A DNA stretch of 64,000 nt from an uncultured Clostridia bacterium (GCA_944362695.1 CALVTQ010000124.1:34620-98619), one strand, 5' to 3'; shown: positions 12,398 through 28,717, numbered from the stretch's first letter. Numbers and translations: made by a program. Notes: generated by a model from the sequence alone, not told the origin.

Positions 12398-15300
12398 ATG
12401 GTGAAGACATTGAAACGCTTGATTGGGCTGCTGGGCGTGCTTGTGGCGCTGGTGCTTTTGACGGGCGTTGCCGTGGCTGAGGAGACGGCTGCGGCTGACC
12501 CGGCCGCCGCACCCGTGACACAGGCGCTCCCGGACGAGACCGCCGAGGCAGCGGACGAGACCGCCGAGGCAGCGGACGAGACCGCCGTGACAGCGAACGA
12601 GACTGCCGCCACAGCGGACGAGGCAATCCTGGAGCCGGTGCTTCCCGTGAAATCCACGGCGGATTATCACGAGATCGTCGGCACCTACTCCATCGATGCG
12701 ACGATTCCGGCCTATGCCGACTACGTCGAGATGCACGAGGACGCGGTGCGCCCGGATGCGTCGATTGTCGTGGCGGCGGACAGCTTCATTCGCTACGAGG
12801 ATGAGGGTGTGGAGGCCGTGCCGCAGATTCTCGCGGGCTTTGAGGGCTGCGAGGGCAACGCCGTGCTCACCGGCGAGGAATCGCTGATCGAGTGGAAAGT
12901 GAACGTCGAGCAGGCGGGCCTGTACGACATGAGCATCCGCTACTACCCCTACGAGGGCAAGAACAGCGCCATCCAGCGCGCGTTCTTCGTGGACGGCGAG
13001 CTGCCCTACGGCGAGATGGCGACGGTCGAGTTCAACCGCGTCTGGCACAACGGCGACTTCGCCGAGACGATAGATGAAAACGGCGTGACCGTGCTGGCCT
13101 GGAACAAGGACAACCAGGGCAACGACCTCAAGCCCTCCGCCGAGGAGATCCCCGAGTGGGTCGACGGCGCGCTCTACGATTCCAACGGCTACATCACCGA
13201 GCAGCTGAGCGTCTATCTGGACGCGGGCGAGCACACGATCTCGATGCTCGCCATGCGCGAGCCGATGCTCGTCAGCGCCATCACGCTGACCAACACCGAG
13301 CGCCCGGCGGCCTATGCGGACGTCAAGGCGGCGGGCGACGCGGCGGGGCAGAAGGACACCTCCGGCGTCGTGGTGCGCTTTGAGGCGGAGAACGCCAAGA
13401 AGACCTCCTCCCAGATGCTCTATCCTGTGCAGGATCAGTCCAGCGCCGACGTCTATCCGGTGTCCACGCGCTACCTGCTCAACAACACCATCGGCGGCAA
13501 CAACTGGAAGAGCGCCGGCCAGTGGATCGAGTGGGAGTTCGAGGTGCCGCAGGACGGCTACTACGCGCTGTCCATGTTCGCCAAGCAGAACTTCGTGCGC
13601 GGCATCAACAGCTACCGCAAGATCAGCATCGACGGCGTCGTGCCGTTTGACGAGTGGAACGCATACGGCTTCAGCTACGATTCCACCTGGCGCATGGAGA
13701 CCATCGACGACGAGGCGGGCGAGCCGTATCGCGTGTATCTGACGGCGGGCAAGCACACGCTGCGCATGGAGGTCGTGCTGGGCGACATGGCGTCGATCAT
13801 CGCGCAGGTGCAGGACTGCGTGCAGCAGCTCAACGGCATCTACCGTCAGGTCATCTACATCACCGGCGTCGCGCCCGACGAGTTCCGCGATTATCAGATC
13901 GAGGCGAGCCTGCCGGGTCTTGAGGCCGAGCTGATTGCCGTGCAGGAGGAACTGAAGGTCGCGCTGGCGGCGCTGGAGAAGACAGCCGGCACCAACTCCG
14001 ACAAGCTGATCGTGCTGCGCACGATGGACGACCAGCTCGACGAGCTGATCGAGGATCAGGAGCGCTTCACCGAGGTTCTTTCCTCTTATAAGACGAACGT
14101 GCGCGCGTGCGGCAACTGGATCACGCAGGTGCTGGGCATGCCGCTGCAGCTGGACCGCATCTACGTCCACTCGGCCGACACCGACCCTGCGGCGGAGAGC
14201 GGCGGCTTCTTCGCGGGCCTTGCGCACGAGGCGAAGCGCCTGTACTACTCCTTCATCATCGACTACAACCAGGTCGGCAACGTCGCCGGTGAGGACACCG
14301 AGGGCGCCGTGCTCACGCTGTGGGTCGGCACGGGCCGCGACCAGGCGAACGTCATCAAGTCCCTGATCGACGAGCGCTTCACGCCGCAGACCGGCATCGC
14401 CGTCAACGTGCAGCTGGTCGACATGAACACGCTGCTGCGCGCCACGCTTTCCGGCGAGGGCCCGGATGTGGCGATTCAGGTCGCCAACACGAACGGCATC
14501 GCTGGCGCCGTCCTGAACACCGGCAACGACACCGCCGTCAACTACGGCCTGCGCGAAGCCGTGCTCGACCTGTCCCAGTTCGAGGACTTTGAGGAGGTCG
14601 TCGCGCGCTTTGCCCCGGCGTCTCTGGTGCCGCTGTCCTTCGGCGGCGCGACCTACGCGCTGCCGGACACGATGACCTTCCCGATGATGTTCTACCGCAA
14701 GGACATCCTCGCCGAGATCGGCATGGAGGTTCCGCAGACGTGGGACGAGGTCAAGGTCGCCATGACGGTTCTGGCCAAGAACCAGATGGAATTCGGCATG
14801 CTGCCCTCCGAGCAGATCTTTGCGATGCTGCTGTTCCAGAACGGCGGCGAGTACTACACCGAGAACGGCATGGCCTCCGCGCTTGACAGCGAGGTCGCCA
14901 TTAACGTCTTCAAGAAGTACTGCGAATACTACACCGATTACAAGCTCGACCGCGCGACCTCTGTGGAGGAGCGCTTCCGCACGGGCGAGTCCCCGATCAT
15001 CATCGCGGACTACACGACCTACAACAACCTGCAGGTCTCCGCGCCGGACATCAAGGGTCTGTGGGACTTCACCGTCGTCCCGGGCACGGTTCAGGAAGAC
15101 GGCACGATCAACCACATGACCGGCGCGACCGGCTTGGCCGACATCATCATGAGCGCGACCGAGTATCCGCAGGAGAGCTGGGAGTTCCTCAAGTGGTGGA
15201 CCTCCGCGGAGATCCAGACGGTCTACGGCCGCGAGATGGAGGCGCTGATGGGCGCGTCCGCCCGCGTGGCGACGGCCAACCGCGAGGCGCTGGCCAACCT

Positions 15301-15580
15301 GTCCTGGCCGATGAAGGACTACAAGGCCCTCGTCGCGCAGATGGACCAGGTCAAGGGCATCGAGCAGGTGCCGGGCGGCTACTACACCTGGCGTAACGTC
15401 AACAACGCCTTCTACACCATCACCACCGACACGGCGACCAACAACACCACGCCGCGCGAGGCGCTGATGGATCAGGTGTACTACATCGACGCCGAGATCG
15501 ACTACAAGCGCACTGAATTCGGCCTGCCGCTCGCCAATGACGACGCGCAGACCGCGCAGGGAGAGGAGGGCGCCAAATGA
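12398..15580 (+). CDS. Giant (1060 aa) extracellular solute-binding protein: signal/anchor, acidic heptad linker, two CBM-like modules, helical region, C-terminal CUT1 SBP domain
   Basis: N-terminal hydrophobic segment. IEWKVNVEQAGLYDMSIRYYP and IEWEFEVPQDGYYALSMFAKQ modules. C-terminal LTLWVGTGRDQANVIK...GGATYALPDTMTFPMMFYRKDIL...TWDEV typical of family-1 SBPs. 4-nt overlap with the next permease gene. Confidence 0.8.
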   Translation: MVKTLKRLIGLLGVLVALVLLTGVAVAEETAAADPAAAPVTQALPDETAEAADETAEAADETAVTANETAATADEAILEPVLPVKSTADYHEIVGTYSIDATIPAYADYVEMHEDAVRPDASIVVAADSFIRYEDEGVEAVPQILAGFEGCEGNAVLTGEESLIEWKVNVEQAGLYDMSIRYYPYEGKNSAIQRAFFVDGELPYGEMATVEFNRVWHNGDFAETIDENGVTVLAWNKDNQGNDLKPSAEEIPEWVDGALYDSNGYITEQLSVYLDAGEHTISMLAMREPMLVSAITLTNTERPAAYADVKAAGDAAGQKDTSGVVVRFEAENAKKTSSQMLYPVQDQSSADVYPVSTRYLLNNTIGGNNWKSAGQWIEWEFEVPQDGYYALSMFAKQNFVRGINSYRKISIDGVVPFDEWNAYGFSYDSTWRMETIDDEAGEPYRVYLTAGKHTLRMEVVLGDMASIIAQVQDCVQQLNGIYRQVIYITGVAPDEFRDYQIEASLPGLEAELIAVQEELKVALAALEKTAGTNSDKLIVLRTMDDQLDELIEDQERFTEVLSSYKTNVRACGNWITQVLGMPLQLDRIYVHSADTDPAAESGGFFAGLAHEAKRLYYSFIIDYNQVGNVAGEDTEGAVLTLWVGTGRDQANVIKSLIDERFTPQTGIAVNVQLVDMNTLLRATLSGEGPDVAIQVANTNGIAGAVLNTGNDTAVNYGLREAVLDLSQFEDFEEVVARFAPASLVPLSFGGATYALPDTMTFPMMFYRKDILAEIGMEVPQTWDEVKVAMTVLAKNQMEFGMLPSEQIFAMLLFQNGGEYYTENGMASALDSEVAINVFKKYCEYYTDYKLDRATSVEERFRTGESPIIIADYTTYNNLQVSAPDIKGLWDFTVVPGTVQEDGTINHMTGATGLADIIMSATEYPQESWEFLKWWTSAEIQTVYGREMEALMGASARVATANREALANLSWPMKDYKALVAQMDQVKGIEQVPGGYYTWRNVNNAFYTITTDTATNNTTPREALMDQVYYIDAEIDYKRTEFGLPLANDDAQTAQGEEGAK
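12536..12619 (+). repeat. Four tandem 21-bp coding repeats (ETAEAAD x2, ETAVTAN, ETAATAD)
   Basis: GAGACCGCCGAGGCAGCGGAC occurs twice exactly (12536-12556, 12557-12577), followed by two diverged copies. Confidence 0.9.
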
Positions 15581-16503
15581 GTTCACAGTCGCGTCCCGTC
15601 CGGACAAAGCGCCAGGAGCTGGCTCGCCAGATCCGCAATTCGAGAGCATGCTATGCGATGCTCGCACCGTACTTCATCCTGTTCTTCTTCTTCACGGTGC
15701 TGCCGGTGCTCATGTCCATCGTCATTTCCTTCACCGACTGGAACATGCTCCAGTTCCCGAACTTCGTCGGCTGGAAGAACTACATCAAGCTCTTCCTCGA
15801 GGACGAAATCTTCATGACGAGCCTGAAGAACACGCTGATCTTCGCCGTGGTCACGGGCCCGGTGAGCTACATGCTCTGTCTTCTGTTCGCGTGGATCATC
15901 AACGAGTTCAGCCGCATTCCCAGAACGCTGCTGACGCTCGTGTTCTACGCGCCGTCCATCTGCGGCAACGCCTACATGGTCTGGAACCTGATCCTCACCG
16001 GCGACCGCTACGGCTACCTCAACGGTTTGCTGCTGAACCTGGGCATCATCAACGAGCCGATCCTCTGGATGCAGACGGAGCAGTACGTGCTGCCGCTGCT
16101 GATCGTGGTTCAGCTCTGGCTGAGCCTTGGCACGGGCTTCCTCTCGTTCATCGCCGGTCTTCAGACCGTTGACAAGAGCATGTACGAGGCGGCGGCCATC
16201 GACGGCATCAAGAACCGCTGGCAGGAGCTTTGGTATGTCACGCTCCCGGCGATGAAGCCGCAGCTGATGTTCGGCGCGGTCATGCAGATCACGCAGTCCT
16301 TCGCCGTGGCGGATATCTCCATCAACCTCGCCGGCAACCCGTCGGTCAACTACGCCGGCGCGACCATCGTCACGCACCTGCTTGACTACGGCTCCACCCG
16401 TATGGAAATGGGCTACGCGTCCGCGATTGCGACCGTGCTGTTCCTGCTGATGGTCGGAACCAACAAGCTCGTGCAGAAGATTCTGGGAAGGGTGGGTGAG
16501 TAA
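15577..16503 (+). CDS. CUT1 sugar ABC transporter permease (MalF/LplB-like)
   Basis: 6 TM pattern. EAA loop EAAAIDGIKNRWQELWYVTLPAMKP. Confidence 0.9.
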   Translation: MSSQSRPVRTKRQELARQIRNSRACYAMLAPYFILFFFFTVLPVLMSIVISFTDWNMLQFPNFVGWKNYIKLFLEDEIFMTSLKNTLIFAVVTGPVSYMLCLLFAWIINEFSRIPRTLLTLVFYAPSICGNAYMVWNLILTGDRYGYLNGLLLNLGIINEPILWMQTEQYVLPLLIVVQLWLSLGTGFLSFIAGLQTVDKSMYEAAAIDGIKNRWQELWYVTLPAMKPQLMFGAVMQITQSFAVADISINLAGNPSVNYAGATIVTHLLDYGSTRMEMGYASAIATVLFLLMVGTNKLVQKILGRVGE

Positions 16504-16504
16504 T

Positions 16505-17443
16505 ATGGCTGAAAAGCGAATCGGGCAGATGCGCTTTGAGGAGCTGCCGCCGTCGCTGCAAAAGAAGCTGCGCAGGCAGAAGATCGTTCCCAGGCTCAAG
16601 CCCAAAAAGCTCAACCGCTCCGTCGCGGGCAACACGCTGCTGTTCTTCATCATGGGCGTGTGCGCCGTGTTCATGGTGCTGCCGCTGGTCATGATCGTCA
16701 ACAACGCGCTCAAGCCGCTGGACGAGCTGTACCAGTACCCGCCGAAGATCTGGGTGCGCAACCCGCATCTGGAGAACTTCTCCGACCTGTTCACGCTGAT
16801 GAACGACACGTGGGTGCCGTTCTCGCGCTACCTGATGAACACGATCATCATCACCGGCGCGGGCATCCTGGGCCACGTCATCATCGCGTCGCTGGCGGCC
16901 TATCCGCTGGCCAAGCATAAATTCCCCGGCAAGAACATCCTCTTCAGCATGGTCGTCCTCTCGATGATGTTCTCCTGGACGGTCACGCAGATTCCGCAGT
17001 ACGCCATCATCTCCTGGATGGGCATCAACAACACATATCTGGCGCTGATCCTGCCGGCCTGCGCATACGGCATGGGCCTGTATCTGATGAAGCAGTTCAT
17101 GGAGCCGCTGCCGGATTCGCTGATGGAATCGGCGCGCATCGAGGGATGCAGCGAGTGGGGCATCTTCTGGAAGATCGTCATGCCCAACGTCAAGCCCGCG
17201 TGGCTGACGCTGGCCATCTTCCAGTTCCAGTCCATGTGGGGCAACACGGGCTCGCTCTTCCTGCGCGATGAGCAGCTCAAGCCGATGCAGTTCGCGCTGC
17301 AGCAGATTACGGCGGGCGGCGCTGCCCGCGCGGGCGCTGCGGCGGCGGTGACGTTCATCATCGCGGCTGTCCCGATCGCGTTCTTCCTGATGTGCCAGTC
17401 CAGCGTCCTTGAGACGATGACCACGTCCGGCATGAAGGACTAA
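16505..17443 (+). CDS. CUT1 sugar ABC transporter permease (MalG/LplC-like)
   Basis: EAA loop ESARIEGCSEWGIFWKIVMPNVKPA. ATG 16505 is 1 nt after the upstream stop. Confidence 0.9.
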   Translation: MAEKRIGQMRFEELPPSLQKKLRRQKIVPRLKPKKLNRSVAGNTLLFFIMGVCAVFMVLPLVMIVNNALKPLDELYQYPPKIWVRNPHLENFSDLFTLMNDTWVPFSRYLMNTIIITGAGILGHVIIASLAAYPLAKHKFPGKNILFSMVVLSMMFSWTVTQIPQYAIISWMGINNTYLALILPACAYGMGLYLMKQFMEPLPDSLMESARIEGCSEWGIFWKIVMPNVKPAWLTLAIFQFQSMWGNTGSLFLRDEQLKPMQFALQQITAGGAARAGAAAAVTFIIAAVPIAFFLMCQSSVLETMTTSGMKD

Positions 17444-17455
17444 GGAGGGAATGAT

Positions 17456-20221
17456 ATGAAGAAAAAGATAAATTCCTTCCTCGCGTTGATGATGGCGCTG
17501 ATGATTCTGCTCACCAGCGTCCCCGTCATGGCGGAAGAGCTTCCTTATGATACGTACAACTACGACTACTGGATCGACATCTTCAAGACCCCGGCGGCCT
17601 ACGTGCCGGAGGGCAGCGTGCTGGGCACGGACCTCACATTCAACGGTGAGTCCATCGGCGCGTTCTCCGATCCGCAGGACCTGTGCGTTGCGCCGGACGG
17701 CAGCATCTACGTCGCCGACACCGGCAACCAGCGCATCGTCGTGCTCAACAGCCGGATGACCGAGGTCACGAATGTCATCACCGGCTTTGACAACGCGGGC
17801 ATGGCCGACGGCTTCAACAAGCCCACCGGCCTGGCGATCTCCGACGACGGCGACCTGTACGTCGCCGACTCGATGAACCACCGCATCGTGCAGCTCGATC
17901 CGAACGGCGCGCTGGTGAACATCATCGAGATCCCCTCGGCGGCCGCCACGCAGGCGCTCGGCGCGAACAGCTACACCGTCGGCACGCATGTCGAGGGCAT
18001 GAGCGAGATCGCCCGGACGATGACCACCGATGCGGGCGAGACCTACGCCATCGTCAGCCTCCCGGCGGGCAGCCCGCTCGAGGCGACCGACGCGCAGGGC
18101 CTGACCTATACCGTCGTGGCTGAAAGCGACATCGTGCAGCCGTTTACCGTGACCGCGGAAAAGGACGGCGCGAAGCTGGAGCTGAGCGAAAAGGCCGACG
18201 CGATCACCTACACCGGCAAGGACGGCGCGGCGCTGGGCATTTCCACGTTCGACCCGATCCCCAACAAGGACATCTTCATTCACATCGGCCGCCTGGTCAG
18301 GAAGGCGCAGGGCAACCCTGTGAGCATGACCAAAATCTCCACGCTGAGCGTGCAGGGCGTCGCCATCGACGATGAAGGCGCGCTCTACCTCGGCGGCGAA
18401 AAGGGCATCACCAAGCTGACGAACGAGGGCGAACTTGTGCGCACGTTCTCCAGCTACAAGGACGCGGCAGGCGCGCAGGTCTCGCTGACCACCATCAGCG
18501 AGTTCGGCGTGGACGGCGACACCGTCTACATCCGCGACGACGCCAACCGTATCATCGTGCTCGACGCGGAGGGCCACCTCGAGAAGATCATCGCCAGCAA
18601 CGCCATCCGCGTGACCGACGGCGAGGGCAACGAGGTCGCCATGATCCGCCCGAGCGAGGATGACAGCGCGGACAACCCGATCGTGGGCATCGAGGTGCTC
18701 GGCGACAAGCTGATGATCGGCAGAACCGACGGCACCGTCGCCATCACGACGCTCACCGGCGAGCGCATCGCGGCCGTGGAAAACGATTCCGTGCTGCGCA
18801 TGGACGCGCAGGGCAGCATCGTCGAGACGATCACCGGCGCGGTCAGCGGCAAGACCACCGAGCGCTTCGCGGGCCTCACCGGCGTGGCGATGGCGGACGG
18901 CAAGCTCTGCGTCGCGGGCGCGGACAACCGCGTGCTCGTCATCGAGAACGGCAATGTCGTGCATACCGCGCAGAACAACTGCGTGCACGTCACGGATGTC
19001 AAGGGAAACCTGCTCGCGGAGATCACCGGCTATGAGCAGGACGGCGCGTTCGTGAAGTTCGCCGAGGTCGGCGGCGTGCAGGGCGTCGCGCTGGGCTACA
19101 CCGCCGACACGACCAAGCCCGAGACGCAGCGCGTGCAGCGCCAGATCTCCATCGCCACCAGCGAGGACGAACTGATCGTGCTGGATGCGAGCAACAATGT
19201 GACCCGCATCGTCAAGGACCCGGACAGCGAGGTGCTCGAGGACGGATACGTCTTCACGCCGCTCAAGGTGAGCGTGGACTACGCGGGCCGCGTGTACTGC
19301 GTGGCGCAGAACATGTTCGAGGGCATCATGGTCTTTGAGACCAACGGCGACTTCACCGGCTTCTTCGGCACCATCGAGGTCACGATCACCGCGTGGGAGA
19401 AGTTCTGGCGCAAGCTGGCGACCAAGGAGGAGCGCAGCAAGCAGCAGCTCTTCATCCCGACCGAGTTCACCGGCATCGACATCGACGAGGAAGGCTTCGT
19501 CTACGCCTCCAACGTCGATAACGAGGGTGTGCAGGCCGTGCGCCGCCTCAACCCCAAGGGCGAGGACGTCATCCGACTGGGCGCCAACGCAAACCTCGGC
19601 GGCGACCTCATGATCAGCGGCACGAGCCAATACGGCGGCCCGAGCAAGATCGTGGACGTCGTCTACCGCGAGAAGGGCATGTACAGCCTGCTGGACAGCA
19701 AGCGCGGCAGGATCTTCACCTACGATCATGAGGGCAACCTCCTTTACATCTTCGGCGGCATCGGCACGCAAGCCGGCACGCTGACGACGCCTGTGGCCGT
19801 GGAGTTTGCGGGCGACCGCATCCTCGCGCTGGACAGCGCACAGGCGAGCATCCTGGTCTACGCCGAGACGGAATACGGACGCCTCATCAACGAGGCGGTC
19901 GGCCTCCGCTTTGACGGCGACGAATCGCAGGCCGTCGGCCTGTGGGAGCAGGTGCTGCGCATGGACGAGAACAACGAGCTGGCCAACGTCGGCATCGGCA
20001 AGGCGTATCTCTCCGCGGGCGACAACGAGAAGGCCATGGAGTACCTCAAGCGCGGCATGAGCCAGGATTACTACTCCGTCGCGTTCAAGCGCTATCGCAA
20101 CGAGGTGCTCAAGGAGAACGTGCAAGGCATGCTCACGGGCCTGACGGTGCTGGTGATCGCGCTGGTGGTCTTCTTTAAGATCGTCAAGCCGCGCATGAAG
20201 AAGAAAGGAAGGAAGGTGTAA
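17456..20221 (+). CDS. NHL-repeat beta-propeller surface protein with C-terminal TPR-like segment and TM anchor
   Basis: Signal peptide ...LLTSVPVMAEE. Repeated blades such as PQDLCVAPDGSIYVADTGNQRIVVL and PTGLAISDDGDLYVADSMNHRIVQLD. TPR-like ELANVGIGKAYLSAGDNEKAMEYLKRG. Terminal TM LTVLVIALVVFF followed by KKKGRKV. Confidence 0.8.
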   Translation: MKKKINSFLALMMALMILLTSVPVMAEELPYDTYNYDYWIDIFKTPAAYVPEGSVLGTDLTFNGESIGAFSDPQDLCVAPDGSIYVADTGNQRIVVLNSRMTEVTNVITGFDNAGMADGFNKPTGLAISDDGDLYVADSMNHRIVQLDPNGALVNIIEIPSAAATQALGANSYTVGTHVEGMSEIARTMTTDAGETYAIVSLPAGSPLEATDAQGLTYTVVAESDIVQPFTVTAEKDGAKLELSEKADAITYTGKDGAALGISTFDPIPNKDIFIHIGRLVRKAQGNPVSMTKISTLSVQGVAIDDEGALYLGGEKGITKLTNEGELVRTFSSYKDAAGAQVSLTTISEFGVDGDTVYIRDDANRIIVLDAEGHLEKIIASNAIRVTDGEGNEVAMIRPSEDDSADNPIVGIEVLGDKLMIGRTDGTVAITTLTGERIAAVENDSVLRMDAQGSIVETITGAVSGKTTERFAGLTGVAMADGKLCVAGADNRVLVIENGNVVHTAQNNCVHVTDVKGNLLAEITGYEQDGAFVKFAEVGGVQGVALGYTADTTKPETQRVQRQISIATSEDELIVLDASNNVTRIVKDPDSEVLEDGYVFTPLKVSVDYAGRVYCVAQNMFEGIMVFETNGDFTGFFGTIEVTITAWEKFWRKLATKEERSKQQLFIPTEFTGIDIDEEGFVYASNVDNEGVQAVRRLNPKGEDVIRLGANANLGGDLMISGTSQYGGPSKIVDVVYREKGMYSLLDSKRGRIFTYDHEGNLLYIFGGIGTQAGTLTTPVAVEFAGDRILALDSAQASILVYAETEYGRLINEAVGLRFDGDESQAVGLWEQVLRMDENNELANVGIGKAYLSAGDNEKAMEYLKRGMSQDYYSVAFKRYRNEVLKENVQGMLTGLTVLVIALVVFFKIVKPRMKKKGRKV

Positions 20222-20223: not shown

Positions 20224-20856
20224 ATGAAAGCGCTTTTTGGCAAGGAGAAGTGGAAGCACCTCTTCTATACGGTAAGCCATCCGGCAGACGGATACTATGA
20301 GATCCGCCACAGGGACAAGGGCAGTCTGGGCATCGCGTTCCTGCTGGTGTTCATCTTCGGTCTGTGCTTTACGCTCAACCGCCTGCTCACCTCGTTCGTG
20401 GTCAACATGATCAACGTGCGCAGCGTCAACCTGCTGCCGGAGATCGCAGGCGTGCTGCTGCTCTACGTGCTGCTGTGCGTGGGCAACTGGTCGATCACAT
20501 GCCTGATGGACGGCGAGGGAAGGTTCAAGGACATCCTCATCGCCGTGGGCTACGCGATGCTGCCGATGATCGTCACCTACATCCTGGCGACGATCCTCAG
20601 CCAGTTCCTGGCGGACGGCGAGCAGGCGTTCTACTCGGTCGTCATGGGCATCGGCATCACCTACACGCTCATCATGGCGCTCACGGGCATCATGCAGGTG
20701 CACAACTACACGCTCGGCAAGACGCTGCTGACGCTGTTTCTGACGCTGATTGCGGCGTTCATCATCATCTTCCTGGTGCTGCTGATCACCAACTTCATCG
20801 GCCAGGTGGTTGCTTTCTTCCAGAGCATCTACACCGAGCTGGTCTTCAGATTCTAA
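20224..20856 (+). CDS. Yip1-like polytopic membrane protein (5 predicted TM)
   Basis: 210 aa, five hydrophobic segments. 2-nt gap after the NHL gene. Family call is from memory of similar clusters annotated YIP1 family. Confidence 0.6.
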   Translation: MKALFGKEKWKHLFYTVSHPADGYYEIRHRDKGSLGIAFLLVFIFGLCFTLNRLLTSFVVNMINVRSVNLLPEIAGVLLLYVLLCVGNWSITCLMDGEGRFKDILIAVGYAMLPMIVTYILATILSQFLADGEQAFYSVVMGIGITYTLIMALTGIMQVHNYTLGKTLLTLFLTLIAAFIIIFLVLLITNFIGQVVAFFQSIYTELVFRF

Positions 20857-20871: not shown

Positions 20872-23493
20872 ATGAAGAAGAATGAAAAGAATGTTTCCGC
20901 GCCCGCCGGCAAGAAGCGCCTCCTCTGGCTGCCGGTCGTGCTGATCGTGGTGGCCATCGCGGCGATCTTCCTTGGCTGGTATCTGAACCGCTATCAGTTC
21001 TACGCGGAGCATGAGCAATACATTGCCGAGCCCGAGGCAGCGCTGCCGGGCAGCGAATTCACGGGTCTTGAGGACGCCGAGCCGAGCGTTGCGGGCATGA
21101 AGCTCGCCGCCAGCAACGACAACCTCAAGCTCTACGCCAACGAAAAGACCGGCGAGGTCGCCGTCTACGACAAGCGCACCGGGCAGACGGTCTACTCCAA
21201 CCCGCCCGAGGCCGACAGCGACGCCATCGCCAACAAGACGAACAAGGGCTACCTCAAGTCCCAGTTCCTCGTGGAATACTACAACGCGGGCCTGACGACC
21301 AACACGTATGACAGCTTCAGCAAGTGCGTGGAGCTGGGCAACATCGCGGCGGAGGCCATCGACGGCGGCGTGCGCTTCATCTACGAGGTCGGCGACGAGG
21401 TCGATATCTTCTACATCCCGCATCTGCTCTCCGACGAGCGCTTCAATGAGCTGTACGAGGGCGCGCCGGACAACGTCAAGAAGCTGATGAAGGGTCAGGA
21501 GAACTCCTTCTACATCCAGGACCCGGAGACGGGAAACTGGGTCATCGGCGAATACGGCGAGACGATGTCCGCCCGCAACCGCAACAGGATCTCCAACAGC
21601 TTTGTCGAGCAGGGCATGACCGAGGAGGAATACTTCGACTGGATGGAGAAGGCGGGCGTTGAGGGCGCCGAGACGCTGGGCTTCACCATCACGCTGGAGT
21701 GGAAGCTGCTCGAGGACGGCGTGCAGTGCACCGTCCCGGCGGACCGCATCGAGGAGCGCGGCGGCGGCAGGGTCGGCAGAATCCAGCTGCTCCCGTTCAT
21801 GGGCGCGGCCTCCACGGATGAGACGGGCTACATGGTCGTGCCCAACGGCTCCGGCTCGCTCATCCGCTTCAACAACGGCAAGACGAACACATCCGCCTAT
21901 AACCAGTACATCTACGACATGGATCTGGTCGATGCGGAATACAACAAGACCCAGAATGTGCAGCCCATCCGCCTGCCGATCTTCGCGATCTGTCGCGAGG
22001 ACAGCACGATTCTGGCGAGCATCGAGAAGGGCTCGTCGCTAGCGCTGCTGACGGCGGACATCTCGGGCCGCAGCCACACCTACAACAACGTGTACGCGAC
22101 GTTCGTGCTGCGCGGCGACGAAAAGCTCTCCATGTTCGGCGCGGGCGAGATGGCGGACATGCCGATCGTGGAAAACGACCTGTATCCCGAGACGCTGACC
22201 GTGCGCTACACGCTGCTGGGCGAGGACTACACGGGATACAGCGGCGTGGCGAGGGCCTACCGCGAGCGCCTGATCGCCGACGGCGTGCTCACGCCCAAGG
22301 CCGAGGGCGGCGACATCCCGTTCTATTACGACGTGATCGGCGGCGTGAAGGAGACGGCCCACACGATGGGCATCCAGCACCTGCGCGTCGCGCCGATGAC
22401 CACGTTTGAGCAGGCGGGCACGATGGCCGGCCAGCTCGCGAGCGCGGGCGTCGGCAACCAGGTCATGAACTTCAAGGGCTGGATGAACGGCGGCTACTAC
22501 CACGACGTGGTGGATAAGATCAAGGTGCTGCGCCAGCTGGGCGGCAAGGACGATCTGGAGAAGCTGAGCAATGCGATGGCCACGCTGGGCGGCGAATTCT
22601 ACGCCGACGCCGCGATTCAGAACGTGAGCCTCGTCTCCAAGCGCTATCGCAGCACGTCGGAGAGCTCCCGCTACTACGGCGCGGGCTACGCGGTCAGCTT
22701 CGGCGAGGTCAACCCCGCGACGCTGCGCCGCACGAGCTCGCTGGGCTATAAGGAGAACCTGTACGACCTGCTCTCCCCGCGCTTCCTGCCCTACTACGTC
22801 GGGCACTACATCGAGGCGATGGAGGACATCGACGTGTCGGGCCTGTCGCTTCGCGACATGGGCAGCGAGCTGCACGCCGACAAGAAGCGCTCCAACCTCA
22901 TCAACCGCGAGGAAGCGCTGATGGTGACCGAGGCGATGATGGATCAGTTCCAGGCCACGGGCAAGGACCTGATGATCGCCGGCGGCAACGGCTACGCGCT
23001 GGAGGGCGTCAAGCACGTCGTGGGTGTGCCGATGTCCGCGACGGAATACTTCATCGTCGATGAGACGATCCCGCTCTATCAGATGGTGACCCACGGCTGC
23101 GTCGATTACGCGGGCATGCCGATCAACACGCTGACCACACAGAACGAGCGCGAGGAGCTGCTCAAGCTCGTCGAGTACGGCGCATCGACCCGCTACATCT
23201 TCACGTGGGAAGAGGCGACGGAGATGAAGTACACCGGCCTCAACAAGTTCTACGCCACGACGTTTGACGCGTGGATGGACGAGGCCGTGGAGAACTACAA
23301 CTACGTCAACGGCGCGCTGTCCGCTGTGAGCAACGCGCAGATCCAGGAGCACTGCTCGCTGTCCGCCACGCTCAAGAAAGTGACGTACGACAACGGCACG
23401 GTCATCTACATCAACTACGGCGATGAGGCCGCAGAGGCGGACGGGGTTACGATTCCCGCCGACGATTATGTGGTGAAGGGAGGCGTGGAGTAA
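20872..23493 (+). CDS. N-terminally anchored 873-aa extracytoplasmic protein, DUF5696-like (possible TIM-barrel glycosidase-like fold)
   Basis: TM LLWLPVVLIVVAIAAIFLGWYL. Large soluble domain with GYMVVPNGSGSLIRF, NFKGWMNGGYYHD. Coding periodicity and GGAGG RBS. Family name recalled, not verified. Confidence 0.55.
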   Translation: MKKNEKNVSAPAGKKRLLWLPVVLIVVAIAAIFLGWYLNRYQFYAEHEQYIAEPEAALPGSEFTGLEDAEPSVAGMKLAASNDNLKLYANEKTGEVAVYDKRTGQTVYSNPPEADSDAIANKTNKGYLKSQFLVEYYNAGLTTNTYDSFSKCVELGNIAAEAIDGGVRFIYEVGDEVDIFYIPHLLSDERFNELYEGAPDNVKKLMKGQENSFYIQDPETGNWVIGEYGETMSARNRNRISNSFVEQGMTEEEYFDWMEKAGVEGAETLGFTITLEWKLLEDGVQCTVPADRIEERGGGRVGRIQLLPFMGAASTDETGYMVVPNGSGSLIRFNNGKTNTSAYNQYIYDMDLVDAEYNKTQNVQPIRLPIFAICREDSTILASIEKGSSLALLTADISGRSHTYNNVYATFVLRGDEKLSMFGAGEMADMPIVENDLYPETLTVRYTLLGEDYTGYSGVARAYRERLIADGVLTPKAEGGDIPFYYDVIGGVKETAHTMGIQHLRVAPMTTFEQAGTMAGQLASAGVGNQVMNFKGWMNGGYYHDVVDKIKVLRQLGGKDDLEKLSNAMATLGGEFYADAAIQNVSLVSKRYRSTSESSRYYGAGYAVSFGEVNPATLRRTSSLGYKENLYDLLSPRFLPYYVGHYIEAMEDIDVSGLSLRDMGSELHADKKRSNLINREEALMVTEAMMDQFQATGKDLMIAGGNGYALEGVKHVVGVPMSATEYFIVDETIPLYQMVTHGCVDYAGMPINTLTTQNEREELLKLVEYGASTRYIFTWEEATEMKYTGLNKFYATTFDAWMDEAVENYNYVNGALSAVSNAQIQEHCSLSATLKKVTYDNGTVIYINYGDEAAEADGVTIPADDYVVKGGVE

Positions 23494-24410
23494 TGAAAAA
23501 ATTGCATGTCTCCATGAGAACAAAGCGCGCGTTCAACGGCTGGATGTTCATCCTGCCGTGGTTCATCGGCTTCATGCTGTTCTATGTGCGCAGCCTGTAC
23601 CAGACGGTGCAGTTCTCTCTGAGCGAGCTGGCGGTTCTGCCCGCCGGCGGCTACGAGCTGGACTTCGTGGGCCTGAAGAACTACATCACGGCCTTCACCG
23701 GCCACGGCACGTTCAAGCAGACGCTCACCACGTCGCTGATGAACATGGTCATCGACGTGCCGCTGATCATCTTCTTCTCGCTGTTCGTGGCGATGCTCCT
23801 GAACCGCAAGATGAAGTGCCGCGGCCTCGTGCGCGCGATCTTCTTCCTGCCGGTTCTGCTCAACTCCGAGGCGATCTCCGGCACGCTGTCCTACGCGGCG
23901 CAGATGATGGCCGGCGGCCTGTCCAGCACCTCCGCGGAAATGGCGGAGGCGGCCTCCTCGGGCAGCGCGGTGAACATGGCGTACTTCATCGCCCTGTTCG
24001 GCGAAATCGCCCTGCCCACGGCTGTGCTTGACTACATCGTCGGCGCGGTCGGCCGAATCAGCGACATCATTCAGGCATCGGGCGTGCAGATCGTCCTGTT
24101 CATCGCGGCGCTGCAGTCCATCACCCCGTCGATGTACGAGGTGGCCAAGATCGAGGGCGCGACCGGCTACGAGACCTTCTGGAAGGTCACCTTCCCGATG
24201 GTCATGCCGCACATCATCACCAACACGATCTACACCATCGTGGACGCGTTCAGCCAGTCCGAGGTCGTCAACCTCGCCTACACGACCGCATTCACGGAGA
24301 GCAACTACGGCCTGTCCTCGTCCTTCAGCGTGATCTCCACGGTCATCACCTGTACGCTGCTGGGCGTGGTGGTCTACCTGATGTCCAAGAAGACATTCTA
24401 CTACAACTAA
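23493..24410 (+). CDS. CUT1 sugar ABC transporter permease (second pair, MalF-like)
   Basis: EAA loop EVAKIEGATGYETFWKVTFPMVMPH. Start overlaps the upstream stop (TAATG). Confidence 0.9.
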   Translation: MKKLHVSMRTKRAFNGWMFILPWFIGFMLFYVRSLYQTVQFSLSELAVLPAGGYELDFVGLKNYITAFTGHGTFKQTLTTSLMNMVIDVPLIIFFSLFVAMLLNRKMKCRGLVRAIFFLPVLLNSEAISGTLSYAAQMMAGGLSSTSAEMAEAASSGSAVNMAYFIALFGEIALPTAVLDYIVGAVGRISDIIQASGVQIVLFIAALQSITPSMYEVAKIEGATGYETFWKVTFPMVMPHIITNTIYTIVDAFSQSEVVNLAYTTAFTESNYGLSSSFSVISTVITCTLLGVVVYLMSKKTFYYN

Positions 24411-24428: not shown

Positions 24429-25367
24429 ATGAAAATCACCGAAAAATGGCAGGCATTCCGCAACTCTCCCCGATATGAGGACCGCAAGGGCGCGCTGATC
24501 AAGACGAGCAAGGGCGTGCTGATGAGCGTGTTCCGCATCATCCTGATCATCGGCATCGCATACGTCATCCTCTCGCCGGTGATCGGCATCGTCTCCCAGT
24601 CCTTCTTCTCGGACAGCGACTCGGCCAACCCGATGGTCTTCACCATCCCGATGAAGCCGACGCTCGAGCGCTATCAGGGTGCATGGCAGGAGCTCAAGTA
24701 TCCGACGACGCTCGCGTGGACGCTGCTGTATACGGTGCTGAACACGGTGTTCCAGGTGCTGATCTGCTCGATGGCGGGCTACGGCTTCGCGCGGTTTGAC
24801 TTCCCGCTCAAGAAGCTGATGTTCGCCTGCGTGGTGATGATGATCGTCATCCCGCAGCACACGATCATGCTCCCGCAGTACATGACGTTCCGCTCGATGG
24901 AGCTCATGCGCTCGCAGATGCCGATGTATATCCTCTCGATCTGCGGCGTCGGCCTGCGCTCCGGCCTGTACATCTACATCTTCAATCAATTTTTCCGCGG
25001 ATTGCCCAAAGAAATTGAGGAAGCGGCATTTGTCGACGGCGCCGGAACGTGGTATACTTATTTCAGGATCATGCTGGTGAACGCCATGCCGGCCGTCATT
25101 ACGGTCACCGTGTTCTCTCTGGTGTGGCAGTACAACGACATGTTCTACGCCAAGCTGTTCCAGATCCCCAACGCGCAGCTGCTCGCCCGCCAGCTCTCCA
25201 CGCTGCAGAGCAACGTCGGCGCGAACCTCAAGATCCTCAACGTCAGCATCCAGAAGCTCTACGTCAACGCGGGCGTGGTGCTGACCATCCTGCCGATCCT
25301 GCTGATTTACCTGCTGCTCCAGAAGCGCTTCGTCGAGGGCGTGGAGCGCTCGGGCATCGTCGGCTAA
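24429..25367 (+). CDS. CUT1 sugar ABC transporter permease (second pair, MalG-like)
   Basis: EAA loop EAAFVDGAGTWYTYFRIMLVNAMPA. GGGGAGGAGG RBS. Confidence 0.9.
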   Translation: MKITEKWQAFRNSPRYEDRKGALIKTSKGVLMSVFRIILIIGIAYVILSPVIGIVSQSFFSDSDSANPMVFTIPMKPTLERYQGAWQELKYPTTLAWTLLYTVLNTVFQVLICSMAGYGFARFDFPLKKLMFACVVMMIVIPQHTIMLPQYMTFRSMELMRSQMPMYILSICGVGLRSGLYIYIFNQFFRGLPKEIEEAAFVDGAGTWYTYFRIMLVNAMPAVITVTVFSLVWQYNDMFYAKLFQIPNAQLLARQLSTLQSNVGANLKILNVSIQKLYVNAGVVLTILPILLIYLLLQKRFVEGVERSGIVG

Positions 25368-25383: not shown

Positions 25384-25470
25384 AGATGCGCATCTTCGTT
25401 TAATAGGCAGGGATTTGCATCCCTGTGTCGAAACCCTAAGGTAAACCCTATGGCAACCCCTGGTCACCCC
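25384..25470 (+). other. Structured intra-operon spacer: two hairpins followed by four phased A(A)CCC(U) repeats
   Basis: AGAT-GCGC-ATCT (25384-25395). CAGGGAT-TTGC-ATCCCTG (25408-25425). AACCCTAAGGTAAACCCTATGGCAACCCCTGGTCACCCC (25432-25470). Confidence 0.4.
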
Positions 25471-25521
25471 GAAGGAAAAGATCCAAACTCCCGAGAGGGA
25501 GGAAAAGAGGAGGTCACTGAA

Positions 25522-27264
25522 TTGAAAAAGGTTCTTTCCTGGCTCCTGATGGCAGTTATGCTGCTGTCGTGCGCTGCGCTGGCGGAGGAGACCGTCGCCG
25601 CGACCGTCATCGACTTTGAGGACGGCAACTTTGCGATGCTCGGCATGAACACCGCTTCCGGCGATGCCGATGCGTCCGTGCTGACCGTTGAGGATTACAA
25701 CGGCAGCAAGGCTCTGCATGTGGACGTGAAGGCTAAGGTGCCGTATGTGGCGCTGAACGTGGAAGGCCTGCTGGGCGACAACCTGGAGAAGGTTCGCTCC
25801 ATCAGCTTCGACGTGGGCGTTGAGCTCGGCTCCGACGGCAAGTTCTACGCCGCCTCCGGCAAGGTCTACACCCTGACCGACGCCGGCGAGACCAAGGTCG
25901 GCTATGACTGGTCCGTCTACCTCGAGCGCAAGAACCCGAAGACCGCGAAGGTCACCCTGGCCGACGTGTTCTTCACCAACGGCGCCGGCGACACCCTGAT
26001 GATCACCAAGGAGAGCGACGCGTTCGTCGATTCCGACAAGTTCCCGGGCGAGGAGCCGCGCGACATCTGGATCGACAACATCCAGTTCCTTGACGAGACC
26101 GGCGCTGCGCTGCCGCTCGACCTGACGGCCGTGTGGACCGCTCCGGTGACCGGCGTTGACCTGTCCAACCTGTCCGTGCTGTCCGGCGCTGTGGCGCTCG
26201 AGGGCATGGCCGTTGAGGGCGGCGCCTGGGGCCAGAACGGCGTTGAGATGACCGAGGAGTTCCTCGCGGCGCTCGTTCCGGGCTCTGTGATCGAGATCTC
26301 CTACGAGTCTGAGGACGGCAGCATGTGGCTGGTGTTCCCGGATTCCGCGGCGGGCTGGATGCGCGTCTGCGACGGCGGCAAGGCCACGACCAACAACTCC
26401 AAGAACATCGCGCAGATCACCTACGAGCAGATCGCTGCTGTGCTGGGTGAGGACACCTCCACGTGGGGCGCGCGCCTGCAGTGCGAGGCTGCGACCAACT
26501 GGAAGGTCTACTCCGTGAAGGTCGGCACCAAGGGCCCGAGGATGGCTCTGACCAATGCCGTCGAGTTCGCCGGCTTCGCCTGCGAGGGCGGCGCCTGGGG
26601 CCAGAACGGCTTCGAGTTCACGCAGGAAGTGCTCGATGCGCTGCAGCCGGGCACTGCGCTGGAGATCAACTTCGAGTCCGAGGACGGCTCCATGTGGATC
26701 GTTCTGCCGGATTCCGCCGCGGGCTGGATGCGCGTTGCTGAAGGCGGCGCTGCGACCATCATCGGCGACAAGGCCTATGTGACCTACGAGCAGATCGTCG
26801 AGAAGTGCGGCGAGGACAAGAGCACCTGGGGCGCGCGCCTGCAGTGCGAGGCGGCGACCAACTGGAAGGTCTTCTCCGTGAAGGTCGGCACCGTGAAGCA
26901 GCTCGTCGGCCTGAAGGACAAGGTTGACTTCGCGGGTTTTGCCTGCGAGGGCGGCGCCTGGGGCCAGAACGGCTTCGAGATGACGCCGGAAATCATCGCG
27001 GCCCTCGTGCCGGGCTCCATCGTCTCCATCTCCTACGAGTCCGAGGACGGCTCCATGTGGATCGTCATGCCGGATTCCGCGGCGGGCTGGATGCGCGTTG
27101 GCGACGGCGGCAAGGCTGCCTGCGACGGCTCTGAGGCGCAGATCACCTACGAGCAGATCGTCGAGATGTGCGGCGAGGACGTCTCCACCTGGGGTGCCCG
27201 CATGCAGTGCGAGTCCGCGACGAACTGGAAGGTCTATTCTGTGAGCGTCGCTCAGGCCCAGTAA
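25522..27264 (+). CDS. Secreted non-catalytic protein: N-terminal CBM-like domain plus three tandem ~121-123-aa repeats
   Basis: TTG 25522 is preceded by AAGAGGAGG. Signal peptide LKKVLSWLLMAVMLLSCAALAEE. N-domain VIDFEDGNF...IWIDNIQFLD. Repeats each contain EGGAWGQNG, ESEDGSMW, PDSAAGWMRV, TYEQI, STWGAR.QCE.ATNWKV.SV. Confidence 0.85.
   Translation: MKKVLSWLLMAVMLLSCAALAEETVAATVIDFEDGNFAMLGMNTASGDADASVLTVEDYNGSKALHVDVKAKVPYVALNVEGLLGDNLEKVRSISFDVGVELGSDGKFYAASGKVYTLTDAGETKVGYDWSVYLERKNPKTAKVTLADVFFTNGAGDTLMITKESDAFVDSDKFPGEEPRDIWIDNIQFLDETGAALPLDLTAVWTAPVTGVDLSNLSVLSGAVALEGMAVEGGAWGQNGVEMTEEFLAALVPGSVIEISYESEDGSMWLVFPDSAAGWMRVCDGGKATTNNSKNIAQITYEQIAAVLGEDTSTWGARLQCEAATNWKVYSVKVGTKGPRMALTNAVEFAGFACEGGAWGQNGFEFTQEVLDALQPGTALEINFESEDGSMWIVLPDSAAGWMRVAEGGAATIIGDKAYVTYEQIVEKCGEDKSTWGARLQCEAATNWKVFSVKVGTVKQLVGLKDKVDFAGFACEGGAWGQNGFEMTPEIIAALVPGSIVSISYESEDGSMWIVMPDSAAGWMRVGDGGKAACDGSEAQITYEQIVEMCGEDVSTWGARMQCESATNWKVYSVSVAQAQ
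26197..27261 (+). repeat. Three tandem coding repeats of 369/363/333 nt inside 25522..27264
   Basis: The conserved TGG of GGAWGQNG falls at 26227, 26596 and 26959 (periods 369 and 363 nt). Confidence 0.9.
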
Positions 27265-27280: not shown

Positions 27281-27316
27281 ACATCCGGCCGGCCCTCAAA
27301 AAGCCGGTCGGATGTG
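27281..27316 (+). terminator. Intra-operon hairpin (attenuator or mRNA-stabilising stem) between repeat-protein gene and SBP gene
   Basis: ACATCCGGCCGGC pairs with GCCGGTCGGATGT (one mismatch). The T-run follows only after 9 nt. Confidence 0.4.
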
Positions 27317-27352
27317 CCGCGAGAATTTTTAATTCACAGGAGGTAATGCCCA

Positions 27353-28717
27353 ATGAAAAAAATGACCGCGCTGTTTGTCGCGCTGGTGATGCTGCTGTCC
27401 GTTTGCAGCTTCGCCGTGGCCGAGGAACCCCGTCACATCCTGATCGGCACGACCTGGGATATGTACTGGGATTCCACCCATGAGTCCATCGACGTGAACC
27501 CGTACTACTCCGGCAAGGAAACCGACCAGATGATCTTCGAGAACGTCAAGAAGGTCGAGGAAGAGAACAACGTCACCTTCGAGTATGTGAACATGCTCTA
27601 CGCCGGCGCTCAGGAGTCCATCAACACCTCCATCCTGGCCGGCACGCCCGATGTGGACATCTACACCGTCGGCCTGGCCATCGGCGCTCCGGCCGTTGCC
27701 AACGGCTACGCGGTCGACCTGCGCGACGTGCTGCCGGCGGATCACCCGGTGCTCACCGGCGAGGACCCGATCATGACCTACATCGACACCGGCGACGGCT
27801 CCGTCTCCCTGCTGACCGCGAACAACAAGGAGAACATCGTCGGCTCCACCTATCCGCTGAGCTTCAACCTGCAGATGATCCAGGACGCGAACCTCGAGGA
27901 TCCGCGTGACCTCGTCGAGCGCGGCGAGTGGACCTGGGATAAGTTCCGCGAGTACTGCAAGGCCCTGACCAAGGACACCGACGGCGACGGCACCATCGAC
28001 GTGTACGGCTTCGGCGGCTGGCCGGGAGACTACATGCCCAACATCCTTATGTCCAACGGCACCTACATTGCCGCGACCGCGACCGAGAACCTGTCCTCCC
28101 CGGAGGTTGCCGAGTGCCTGCAGTTCGTCCAGGATCTGAACCTGGTGGACGGCGTCATGTACCCGATCCCGGAGGAGAACGGCTGGGATATCTGCCGCGT
28201 GCTCTATCGTGACCAGAAGGTCGCCTTCTGCCCGAACGCTGCGTGGATCATGTCCTCCAACGACGACTACGGCTACCAGAGCGGCACGCCGGTTCTCGAC
28301 TTCGACATGGTGTTCGTGCCGTGGCCGGTCGGCCCGAGCGGCAATGCCGAGACCAACAAGCATAAGGTCGCTGAATCCTCCTGCTTCATGATCCCGGTCG
28401 GCACCGAGGATCCGGAGCTGGTCTTCAACGTCCTGTACGACATCCAGAACTGGTTCAACGGCGACCTGTCCATCCGCGATGATGAGGAAGCCCTCGACTG
28501 GTGGTATGGCGTCACCGCGAAGGACATCGACCTGCAGGACCACAACTTCGAGGTCATGTACCAGATGGGTCTCAAGCAGCAGTACGAGATGGTGAGCAAC
28601 CTCGGCTTCGAACTGCCTTTCCGTGAGCTGATCGCCGGTGACTACACCGTCGCTCAGTTCCAGGAGACCTACAAGCAGCAGGTGCAGGATGCCATCGACG
28701 GCCTGATGGGCAACTAA
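27353..28717 (+). CDS. CUT1 extracellular solute-binding protein (family 1)
   Basis: Signal peptide MKKMTALFVALVMLLSVCSFAVAEE. 454 aa with SBP-like pattern (DVDIYTVG, WTWDKFREYCKALT, AFCPNAAW). Confidence 0.85.
   Translation: MKKMTALFVALVMLLSVCSFAVAEEPRHILIGTTWDMYWDSTHESIDVNPYYSGKETDQMIFENVKKVEEENNVTFEYVNMLYAGAQESINTSILAGTPDVDIYTVGLAIGAPAVANGYAVDLRDVLPADHPVLTGEDPIMTYIDTGDGSVSLLTANNKENIVGSTYPLSFNLQMIQDANLEDPRDLVERGEWTWDKFREYCKALTKDTDGDGTIDVYGFGGWPGDYMPNILMSNGTYIAATATENLSSPEVAECLQFVQDLNLVDGVMYPIPEENGWDICRVLYRDQKVAFCPNAAWIMSSNDDYGYQSGTPVLDFDMVFVPWPVGPSGNAETNKHKVAESSCFMIPVGTEDPELVFNVLYDIQNWFNGDLSIRDDEEALDWWYGVTAKDIDLQDHNFEVMYQMGLKQQYEMVSNLGFELPFRELIAGDYTVAQFQETYKQQVQDAIDGLMGN

Follow-up and report, generated by a model that had tools for sequence, protein, structure and literature searches.

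The window analysed here is a 64,000-nt stretch of DNA (62% G+C) from an uncultured Clostridia bacterium, and our subject is a block of co-directional genes at 12398-28717 on its + strand, which encodes two sets of sugar-type permeases of ATP-binding cassette (ABC) transporters together with several large envelope proteins. The conserved unit to which these genes belong reaches beyond the operon of the window: it is an eight-gene core with swappable enzyme partners. This core is ancient and has a fixed order, namely a giant solute-binding protein (SBP), permease pair A, an NHL-TPR protein, a Yip1-family protein, a DUF5696 protein and permease pair B. The partners specific to the window are two CBM35-GH26 mannanases (CBM, carbohydrate-binding module; GH, glycoside hydrolase), a triple-CBM65 protein and a second SBP, with CE2 acetyl-esterases in relatives. 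We regard it as fairly probable that the window block represents the local form, directed at (gluco)mannan, of a modular system that is widespread in Clostridia and serves the capture, trimming and import of glycans at the cell surface.

Gene content of the block

The genes of the cassette are as follows.

10912-12390, +: secreted CBM35-GH26 endo-beta-1,4-mannanase, first gene of the 11-gene cassette (Pfam GH26 E 4.4e-68, CBM_35 E 6.4e-15)
12398-15580, +: giant SBP, 1060 aa (SBP_bac_1 E 4.9e-15)
15577-16503, +: permease A1, MalF-type role, 308 aa (BPD_transp_1; EAA loop YEAAAIDG)
16496-17443, +: permease A2, 315 aa (BPD_transp_1 E 1.1e-14; EAA loop ESARIEGCS)
17456-20221, +: NHL-TPR type-I membrane protein (predicted), 921 aa (NHL E 1.5e-19, SGL E 1.3e-9, TPR_19 E 7.9e-5)
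20224-20856, +: Yip1-family membrane protein with five transmembrane segments, 210 aa (Yip1 E 8.9e-15)
20872-23493, +: DUF5696 protein, 873 aa (Pfam E 4.6e-190)
23493-24410, +: permease B1, 305 aa (BPD_transp_1; EAA loop YEVAKIEGAT)
24429-25367, +: permease B2, 312 aa (BPD_transp_1; EAA loop EEAAFVDGAG)
25450-27264, +: triple-CBM65 secreted non-catalytic protein (CBM65_1 E 1.2e-77, three stretches)
27353-28717, +: SBP2, an ordinary-sized CUT1 SBP, 454 aa (SBP_bac_8 E 9.6e-13, SBP_bac_1 E 3.6e-11)

The last ten of these make up the block. An earlier interpretation of the same DNA (the sequence-only reading) had proposed ten co-directional genes here, and all ten were recovered by open reading frame (ORF) calling with the same coordinates and lengths. 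Pfam agrees with every family that it had named (SBP, permeases, NHL, Yip1 and DUF5696 among them), and likewise finds neither an ATPase nor a regulator gene within the block. Successive junctions of the ten ORFs measure -4, -8, 12, 2, 15, -1, 18, 82 and 88 nt. The 82-nt gap becomes 154 nt at the alternative start of the CBM65 protein, which is 604 aa long from its first ATG and 580 aa long from codon L25 (base 25522), the likely start. From the GH26 gene at 10912 through permease B2, all junctions lie between an 8-nt overlap and an 18-nt gap.

The block appears to form one co-transcribed unit, and a scan for terminator-like sites gave no convincing + strand terminator inside it. The promoter candidate already picked out in the sequence-only reading, TTGACA-17-TATGAT at 10838-10866 (+), matches the sigma-70 consensus at 11 of 12 positions; it is a consensus match only, and promoter-like sites occur in the region at chance level (4 found versus 3.7 expected). 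An 18-nt direct repeat, GATTGTAYATATTGTATG, is a candidate operator. Its two copies at 10770-10787 and 10847-10864 (+) are 77 nt apart, against 0.03 expected, and the second overlaps the -10 hexamer. The motif is absent from the rest of the window and was not found in the 92 related loci searched. At the other end, a G+C-rich 9-bp hairpin at 28809-28832, between the convergent SBP2 and NagB-like genes, is a likely terminator; it was scored on the minus strand and would also serve the + strand. An Rfam scan returned no RNA element anywhere in the window.

Conservation of gene order

Gene order was compared in 80 loci, one genome per species, with ORFs assigned to the best-matching window protein. 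Forty-eight of the loci extend over the complete set of 11 genes; in 47 of the 48, order and strand are identical and run GH26, giant SBP, permeases A1 and A2, NHL, Yip1, DUF5696, permeases B1 and B2, CBM65 protein, SBP2. The eight central genes are present in 61 of the 80 loci, the remaining loci ending at contig ends. For L001 and L003 the same order is also found in the collection's own gene calls, followed by a CE2 esterase. The 47 conserved loci span several orders of Clostridia. As deposited, the carriers are Christensenellales-type metagenome-assembled genomes (MAGs; Aristaeellaceae, Limiplasma, 'CAG:74'), Oscillospiraceae and many Lachnospiraceae (Roseburia, Butyrivibrio, Acetatifactor, Anaerocolumna, Mobilitalea). 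Contigs L012, L013 and L049 are deposited as Alloprevotella, Bacteroidaceae and Anaerolineaceae bins. The ORF lengths of L012 and L013 and their identity to the window are close to those of L025, from an Anaerovoracaceae bin, so the names are probably binning or naming errors. A spread outside Clostridia, as suggested by these three labels and that of a 'Faecalibacterium' MAG, was not accepted because the labels look like artefacts of this kind.

Close homologues of the DUF5696 protein number in the hundreds among uncultured Clostridia, and its family comprises 5,826 clusters at 50% identity (E<=1e-3), with the same core in every context examined. A single cassette-bearing protein cluster at 90% identity holds 14,105 member sequences; a member occurs both on a metagenome contig from human gut and on an assembled contig of 2.48 Mb, with two CE2 genes following each time.

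Seven distant variants, taken from loci of NHL-Yip1 fusion proteins and of remote DUF5696 representatives, keep the core order as far as their contigs extend (DUF5696 23-32% identical where measured). The whole core is found in L084, L085, L087, L088 and L092; L086 and L091 are partial, being cut by contig ends. In the loci compared (L084-L088), each core protein of the window has its best match at the corresponding position. The partners of the core are these.

L084 and L085: GH26, CBM65 protein and second SBP absent
L086: SBP and GH29 fucosidase
L087: SBP and unknown proteins
L088: SBP and GH30_2
L091: NHL-Yip1 fusion, on a short contig
L092: GH31, DUF624, SBP, GDSL esterase, 2-epimerase and GH130

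A 2-epimerase together with GH130, as in L092, constitutes the classical manno-oligosaccharide pathway. In some variants the giant SBP is the sole SBP for four permease genes.

The components change at different rates. Median identity to the window is 80% for permease pair A (A1: 65 loci), 63% for the giant SBP, 49% for SBP2 and 47% for DUF5696; the distant variants give 48-57%, 30-41%, 23-25% and 23-32% for the same proteins. Permeases A1 and A2 are tied as the most conserved genes of the cassette and SBP2 is its fastest-evolving transport component. These rates fit a constant core with variable specificity parts. The triad of NHL, Yip1 and DUF5696 beside doubled permease pairs, which the sequence-only reading had expected in other genomes, is borne out by the 47 loci and the seven variants, and the neighbourhood is more strongly conserved than had been suspected. 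The single-operon view is refined in that the unit that is conserved is the core with its variable partners.

Two importers and their substrate

Both transport sets have the features of CUT1-type importers. The SBPs are of family 1, with sugar SBPs as PDB relatives, and the BPD_transp_1 permeases keep the EAA loop for ATPase docking in four of four cases. Pairs A and B match each other with only 35-66 bits, so their duplication is ancient. SBP2 presumably serves permease pair B. No MalK/MsmK-type ATPase was found in the block or beside the core in the related loci examined, and elsewhere in the window the ABC ATPase domains found belong to an OppD/F pair. Firmicutes commonly use a shared ATPase whose gene lies at another site, and its absence from the block does not exclude function; given that the EAA loops are kept, an MsmK-type ATPase encoded elsewhere would have to power the importers.

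The solved structures nearest to the GH26 enzyme encoded at 10912 are endo-mannanases, PaMan26A (3zm8, E 7.5e-85) followed by 6hpf and 6ueh. Characterised CBM65 modules bind polymers that contain beta-1,4-glucan, including konjac glucomannan, and do not bind pure mannan or guar or carob galactomannan (PMC3576085). Taken together with the CE2 genes of related loci, these properties suggest that the window cassette acts on acetylated gluco- or galactogluco-mannan.

The giant SBP and its fusion to the mannanase

The giant SBP begins with a signal peptide of the signal peptidase I type and an acidic linker, followed by two beta-sandwiches (residues ~120-300 and ~325-460), a helical bundle (463-578) and the SBP domain (~640-1040). 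SBP_bac_1 matches residues 652-940, within the C-terminal ~40% of the protein, and the closest sequence match is Lin1841 (5ysb, E 2.5e-15), a sophoro-oligosaccharide binding protein from Listeria. The AlphaFold2 (AF2) model was usable for residues 85-600, and the part past 600 was not used. Foldseek relates the beta-sandwiches to CBM6 (2cdo/2cdp) and CBM35 (2w1w) structures at target template modelling scores (TM-scores) of 0.65-0.71; the Pfam CBM_35 match is below cut-off (18.8 versus 28 bits). On this model, the ~550 extra residues are predicted to comprise two CBM6/35-like domains and a helical spacer.

A lipobox is missing in 27 of 28 giant-SBP homologues, whose signal peptide is of the cleavable type. 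AxA-type signal peptides that have no lipobox cysteine are found in the giant SBP (12398-12500), in SBP2 orthologues (27353-27430) and in the Opp-type SBP (30850-30940), which is an uncommon trait for SBPs in bacteria with a single membrane. The neighbouring protein at 45953-47194 does carry a lipobox (LAAC).

CBM35-GH26 and the giant SBP are a single ORF of ~1500 aa in three genomes (L020:1361-5818, L021:1071-5576, L027:1161-5669), where a Pro/Glu/Ala-rich linker takes the place of the SBP signal peptide. An assembly artefact does not account for this fusion, as each of the three genomes has its own junction sequence and the signal peptide has been lost cleanly.

The NHL-TPR and Yip1 proteins

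Hydropathy analysis agrees with the topologies suggested in the sequence-only reading, i.e. a signal peptide and C-terminal transmembrane helix in the NHL protein, five transmembrane segments in Yip1 and an N-terminal anchor in DUF5696. In the NHL protein the signal peptide is followed by the NHL region (69.4 bits against a cut-off of 20), a TPR-like helical region and a transmembrane helix at residues 887-914; the TPR_19 match is weak (E 7.9e-5) and below the Pfam cut-off. The protein is predicted from its sequence to be a type-I membrane protein with an extracellular beta-propeller. Its length varies from 1310 aa in L001 and 921 aa in the window to ~500 aa in most Lachnospiraceae, and alignment to the 507-aa homologue P0184 locates a ~320-aa insertion (residues 165-483) inside the propeller region of the window protein. 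The Yip1 protein covers positions 3-172 of the 173 in its profile (PF04893) and has five hydrophobic segments.

A search with the NHL protein retrieved proteins of 718-768 aa that carry NHL and Yip1 together. These (P0185-P0191) combine a signal peptide, NHL, a TPR-like region, one transmembrane helix, a short basic loop and a five-segment Yip1 domain in a single chain. Each has homology to both window proteins and corresponds to a head-to-tail fusion of the two genes, with topologies that agree. The window Yip1 protein is over its full length 29% identical to residues 510-720 of P0187 (E 3e-31). NCBIfam holds no model that names any of the six large proteins, and its weak matches are to ScyF/ScyE-type NHL proteins.

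The DUF5696 protein

The DUF5696 profile (PF18952) is matched at 633.6 bits, against a cut-off of 25.6, over positions 8-612 of 612. The N-terminus is positively charged and precedes the sole transmembrane helix (~15-42, hydropathy), so the anchor would be oriented N-in, C-out with the domain facing outward. The AF2 model has a mean predicted local distance difference test (pLDDT) of 76.8 and a predicted TM-score (pTM) of 0.76. Foldseek places it closest to ZgGH129 (5opq, E 2e-28) and NagBb (5wzp, E 5e-26) at target TM-scores of 0.63-0.69, with further matches to GH101 (EngBF, 2zxq), GH36 (AgaA, 4fnp) and GH31 at E values up to ~1e-8. The domain order is that of GH129, GH101 and GH36, for which the Foldseek E values range from 2e-28 to 1e-13: a beta domain at the N-terminus, then a (beta/alpha)8 barrel, then a beta-sandwich at the C-terminus. 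Sequence identity to these fold relatives is 8-13%, and a phmmer search against PDB sequences gave nothing at E<=1. A profile built from 30 homologues yielded a marginal match to NagBb (E 0.017), in which the family motif GW.NGGY is aligned with GWAQPGY of NagBb.

Among 139 full-length representatives, D670 is kept in 129, D730 in 132, E768 in 135, R679 in 138, N752 in all 139 and W537 in 133. D670, D730 and E768 are candidate catalytic carboxylates by virtue of their conservation and strand position. D670 and D730 follow barrel strands and are 60 residues apart; a similar spacing is found in enzymes of clan GH-D (GH27/31/36). D662, the first candidate for the nucleophile, was replaced by D670 because it is 62% conserved in the family. 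An hhalign comparison with the GH31 enzyme of the window produced no usable alignment. On the basis of the model, DUF5696 is a putative retaining alpha-glycosidase that lies outside GH129 and GH101 by sequence and shares their fold, and if active it would found its own glycoside hydrolase family. Unlike GH129, GH101 and GH36 enzymes, DUF5696 is membrane-anchored and always encoded between ABC permease genes. A full-text search found no paper mentioning 'DUF5696' or 'PF18952' in the literature library used. The variant at L084:12187-17922 is 1911 aa long, and its ~1000 extra C-terminal residues have no Pfam match.

None of the unknowns thus matched a well-characterised family with an unrelated role: DUF5696 has a GH129/GH101/GH36-like fold and the giant SBP has CBM6/35-like domains. 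The sequence-only reading had listed four large envelope proteins as having no assigned role in sugar uptake. This holds for two of them, whereas the other two now have predicted roles.

Proposed mechanism and alternatives

In the mechanism that we favour, the secreted GH26 enzymes would fragment the polymer close to the cell, and the giant SBP, with its CBM6/35-like domains on a helical spacer, would retain chains and fragments at the membrane together with the CBM65 protein. The outward-facing DUF5696 domain would then trim the captured fragments; for galactogluco-mannan, removal of alpha-galactosyl branches is the obvious candidate reaction. Two type-I ABC importers with different SBPs would take up the products, powered by a shared MsmK-type ATPase from elsewhere. 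The NHL-TPR ectodomain, tethered or fused to Yip1, could act as a membrane-embedded organiser that keeps the non-lipidated SBP and the enzymes beside the permeases, and it may itself bind glycan. Our confidence in any particular DUF5696 substrate is much lower than in the system as a whole.

Several observations weigh against this mechanism. The role given to NHL-TPR and Yip1 rests on synteny and fusion, the SBP half of the giant-SBP model has pLDDT <50, and the candidate catalytic carboxylates were chosen from conservation and strand position. D662, positioned where barrel strand 4 ends, occurs in just 86 of the 139 DUF5696 representatives. The alpha-galactosidase idea is weakened in that DUF5696 is part of the invariant core, which is also found beside genes for fucosidase and GH30, so it may act on something other than a side chain of mannan; known Firmicute mannan loci, too, remove galactose intracellularly. 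Finally, the missing lipid anchor had to be dropped as a cassette-specific trait, because SBP2 orthologues and the Opp SBP of the window also have no lipobox, and it counts as a weak argument only.

A more far-reaching version is possible, and we put it forward tentatively. Here the eight core proteins would form a single membrane supercomplex, the single-membrane counterpart of the Bacteroidota utilisome, in which NHL-TPR-Yip1 docks the non-lipidated, CBM-bearing SBP (sometimes fused to an endo-glycanase) and the membrane-anchored DUF5696 onto two different ABC importers; DUF5696 would found a new GH family whose specificity varies by locus.

DUF5696 may instead be a catalytically dead, lectin-like or scaffold protein, with the NHL propeller as the active or ligand-recognising part of a capture or sensing device and system A as a high-capacity binder or sensor. 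The similarity to GH129 and GH101 is indeed at the level of the fold and does not extend to a residue-level mapping of the catalytic pair, NHL/SGL propellers include enzymes as well as extracellular sensor domains, and the weak NCBIfam matches to ScyF/ScyE-type NHL proteins are in line with such a device. We nevertheless consider it unlikely, because three acidic residues together with R679 and N752 are kept in 93-100% of the 139 members, which is the pattern of an active site, and the EAA loop in all four permeases argues for real transport.

It is also quite unlikely, in our judgement, that the trio of DUF5696, NHL and Yip1 acts on the cell's own envelope, either locally opening or remodelling a wall glycopolymer or surface layer to give large glycans and non-lipidated SBPs access to the permeases, or retaining secreted SBPs and enzymes at the surface. 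The trio and permease pair A stay constant as the enzymes vary (GH26, GH29, GH30, GH130), and TPR-like and propeller domains are typical protein-binding modules. Moreover, some means of retention at the surface is needed for the giant SBP and its GH26 fusion, both of which lack a lipobox and have only a signal peptide of the cleavable type; yet the absence of a lipobox is general in the window organism. DUF5696 is the fastest-evolving core protein (47%; 23-32% in variants), a better fit to a changing substrate than to a constant self-glycan, and no wall-synthesis or wall-anchoring genes are linked.

That two ordinary, independent CUT1 importers lie by chance beside unrelated membrane-protein genes is highly improbable: each half does resemble a standard SBP with two permeases, and sugar ABC loci often cluster in regions as rich in carbohydrate-active enzymes (CAZymes) as the window, but this idea is contradicted by the identical order and strand in 47 of 48 loci, the persistence of the core at 23-57% identity with different partners, two independent fusion types that join its components, variants with four permease genes and the giant SBP alone, and junctions of -8 to 18 nt from GH26 through permease B2.

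Flanking genes

Next to the cassette, the following genes were assigned.

9211-10659, +: first CBM35-GH26 endo-beta-mannanase gene, upstream of the promoter-like site (Glyco_hydro_26 E 2.5e-75, CBM_35 E 4.8e-17)
7452-9236, -: GH44 of the divergent CAZyme set (Pfam)
6455-7435, -: GH26 without CBM, divergent set (Pfam)
4505-6448, -: GH42 beta-galactosidase, divergent set (Pfam)
29625-30527, -: AraC-family regulator (HTH_18 E 2.9e-24)

The divergent GH44-GH26-GH42 set (4505-9236, -) stands back to back with the first CBM35-GH26 gene and is possibly in the same regulon as the cassette. The AraC regulator lies ~900 nt 3' of the block on the opposite strand, the related locus L003 has a LacI-type regulator at the equivalent place, and a link of the AraC protein to cassette control appears plausible. 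The CBM35-GH26 gene at 9211-10659, which is the second such enzyme of the locus, the divergent set and the regulator had all escaped the sequence-only reading, as had the artefactual nature of three ORFs. These have no family match and are antisense to real genes: 9097-10671 (-, 524 aa), opposite the first CBM35-GH26 gene, 28818-30707 (+, 629 aa) and 4412-7465 (+).

The downstream part of the window (28818-64000) is rich in sugar-use genes, with a NagB-like gene at 28851-29573 (-), GH88 at 37603-38700, GH38 at 38755-41775, a ROK kinase at 41785-42750, GH31 at 56698-58752 and a GH43 C-terminal domain at 59451-60293. An Opp-type peptide importer occupies 30744-37064 and an HlyD/permease/MacB-like set 48673-54340. 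A GH2 gene appears split into two overlapping minus-strand ORFs at 60462-63178, which reflects a frameshift, a pseudogene or a sequencing error; the ORF at 61187-63178 holds the N-terminal, Ig-like and TIM-barrel domains, and that at 60462-61655 holds DUF4982 and the GH2 C5 domain.

Significance and comparison with known systems

In the usual picture, Gram-positive gut bacteria harvest glycans with secreted enzymes, a single lipoprotein SBP and its importer. The cassette suggests that the surface machinery can be more elaborate, while being conserved and open to reuse; the cassette itself is widespread, abundant in human and animal guts and unstudied. A literature search combining Yip1, NHL, GH26, ABC transporter, mannan and Lachnospiraceae gave nothing relevant, and a 2026 paper on mannan in the pig gut does not mention the cassette. 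A lead to GH26 of Clostridium phytofermentans was dropped, as it did not show whether the cassette is carried. What is probably new is a modular and elaborate system of glycan utilisation that is built on ABC importers and includes an uncharacterised membrane module of three proteins and, probably, a new family of glycosidases. If the proposed mechanism is correct, it would add a glycoside hydrolase family, provide the first nutrient-uptake role for bacterial Yip1 and NHL proteins and explain how non-lipidated SBPs are retained at a monoderm surface. In genomes of Christensenellales-like bacteria and Lachnospiraceae, the cassette would then also mark the primary degraders of (gluco)mannan.

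YknW is a Yip1-family subunit and, to our knowledge, the sole bacterial precedent for the role of a Yip1 protein. In Bacillus subtilis, YknWXYZ is an ABC-transporter system with YknW as accessory membrane subunit (PMC4887032). As in that system, the window encodes a polytopic Yip1-family protein alongside an ABC transporter. YknXYZ, in contrast, is a MacB-type exporter with a membrane-fusion protein and protects against a toxin, whereas the window Yip1 is accompanied by an NHL-TPR ectodomain, a protein resembling a glycosidase and type-I importers for sugar.

The sequence-only reading had proposed a surface apparatus for glycan capture and processing that feeds two importers, analogous to Sus-like systems. 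Synteny, folds and fusions support the apparatus, and the analogy is functional only. Those checks suggested in that reading that were run all came out in its favour. As in the Bacteroidota Sus-like systems and the utilisome, surface glycan-binding proteins and a surface glycosidase stand beside a transporter, and a core is combined with substrate-specific enzymes in many loci. There is no homology, however, and no SusC TonB-dependent transporter, SusD or outer membrane; the window has ABC importers in a single membrane, and complex formation is presumed. SusC/SusD-type Pfam families are absent from the genes of the block and its flanks, so the cassette is not Sus-like by membership.

With GH26 twice, two ABC systems and a co-localised AraC regulator whose regulatory link is presumed, the locus conforms to the working definition of a Gram-positive polysaccharide utilisation locus (PUL). 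La Rosa et al. 2019 are said to describe beta-mannan loci of Roseburia intestinalis with one importer and a lipoprotein-type SBP, and without NHL, Yip1 or DUF5696. Shared features are a secreted, CBM-bearing GH26, two permeases that go with a CUT1 SBP, a regulator close by and an ATPase whose gene lies elsewhere, as well as CE2-type esterases in relatives of the window. Unlike the R. intestinalis loci, the window has two anciently diverged permease pairs, an SBP of ~1000 aa with CBM-like domains and three extra membrane proteins in fixed order, and its core is reused with non-mannan enzymes.

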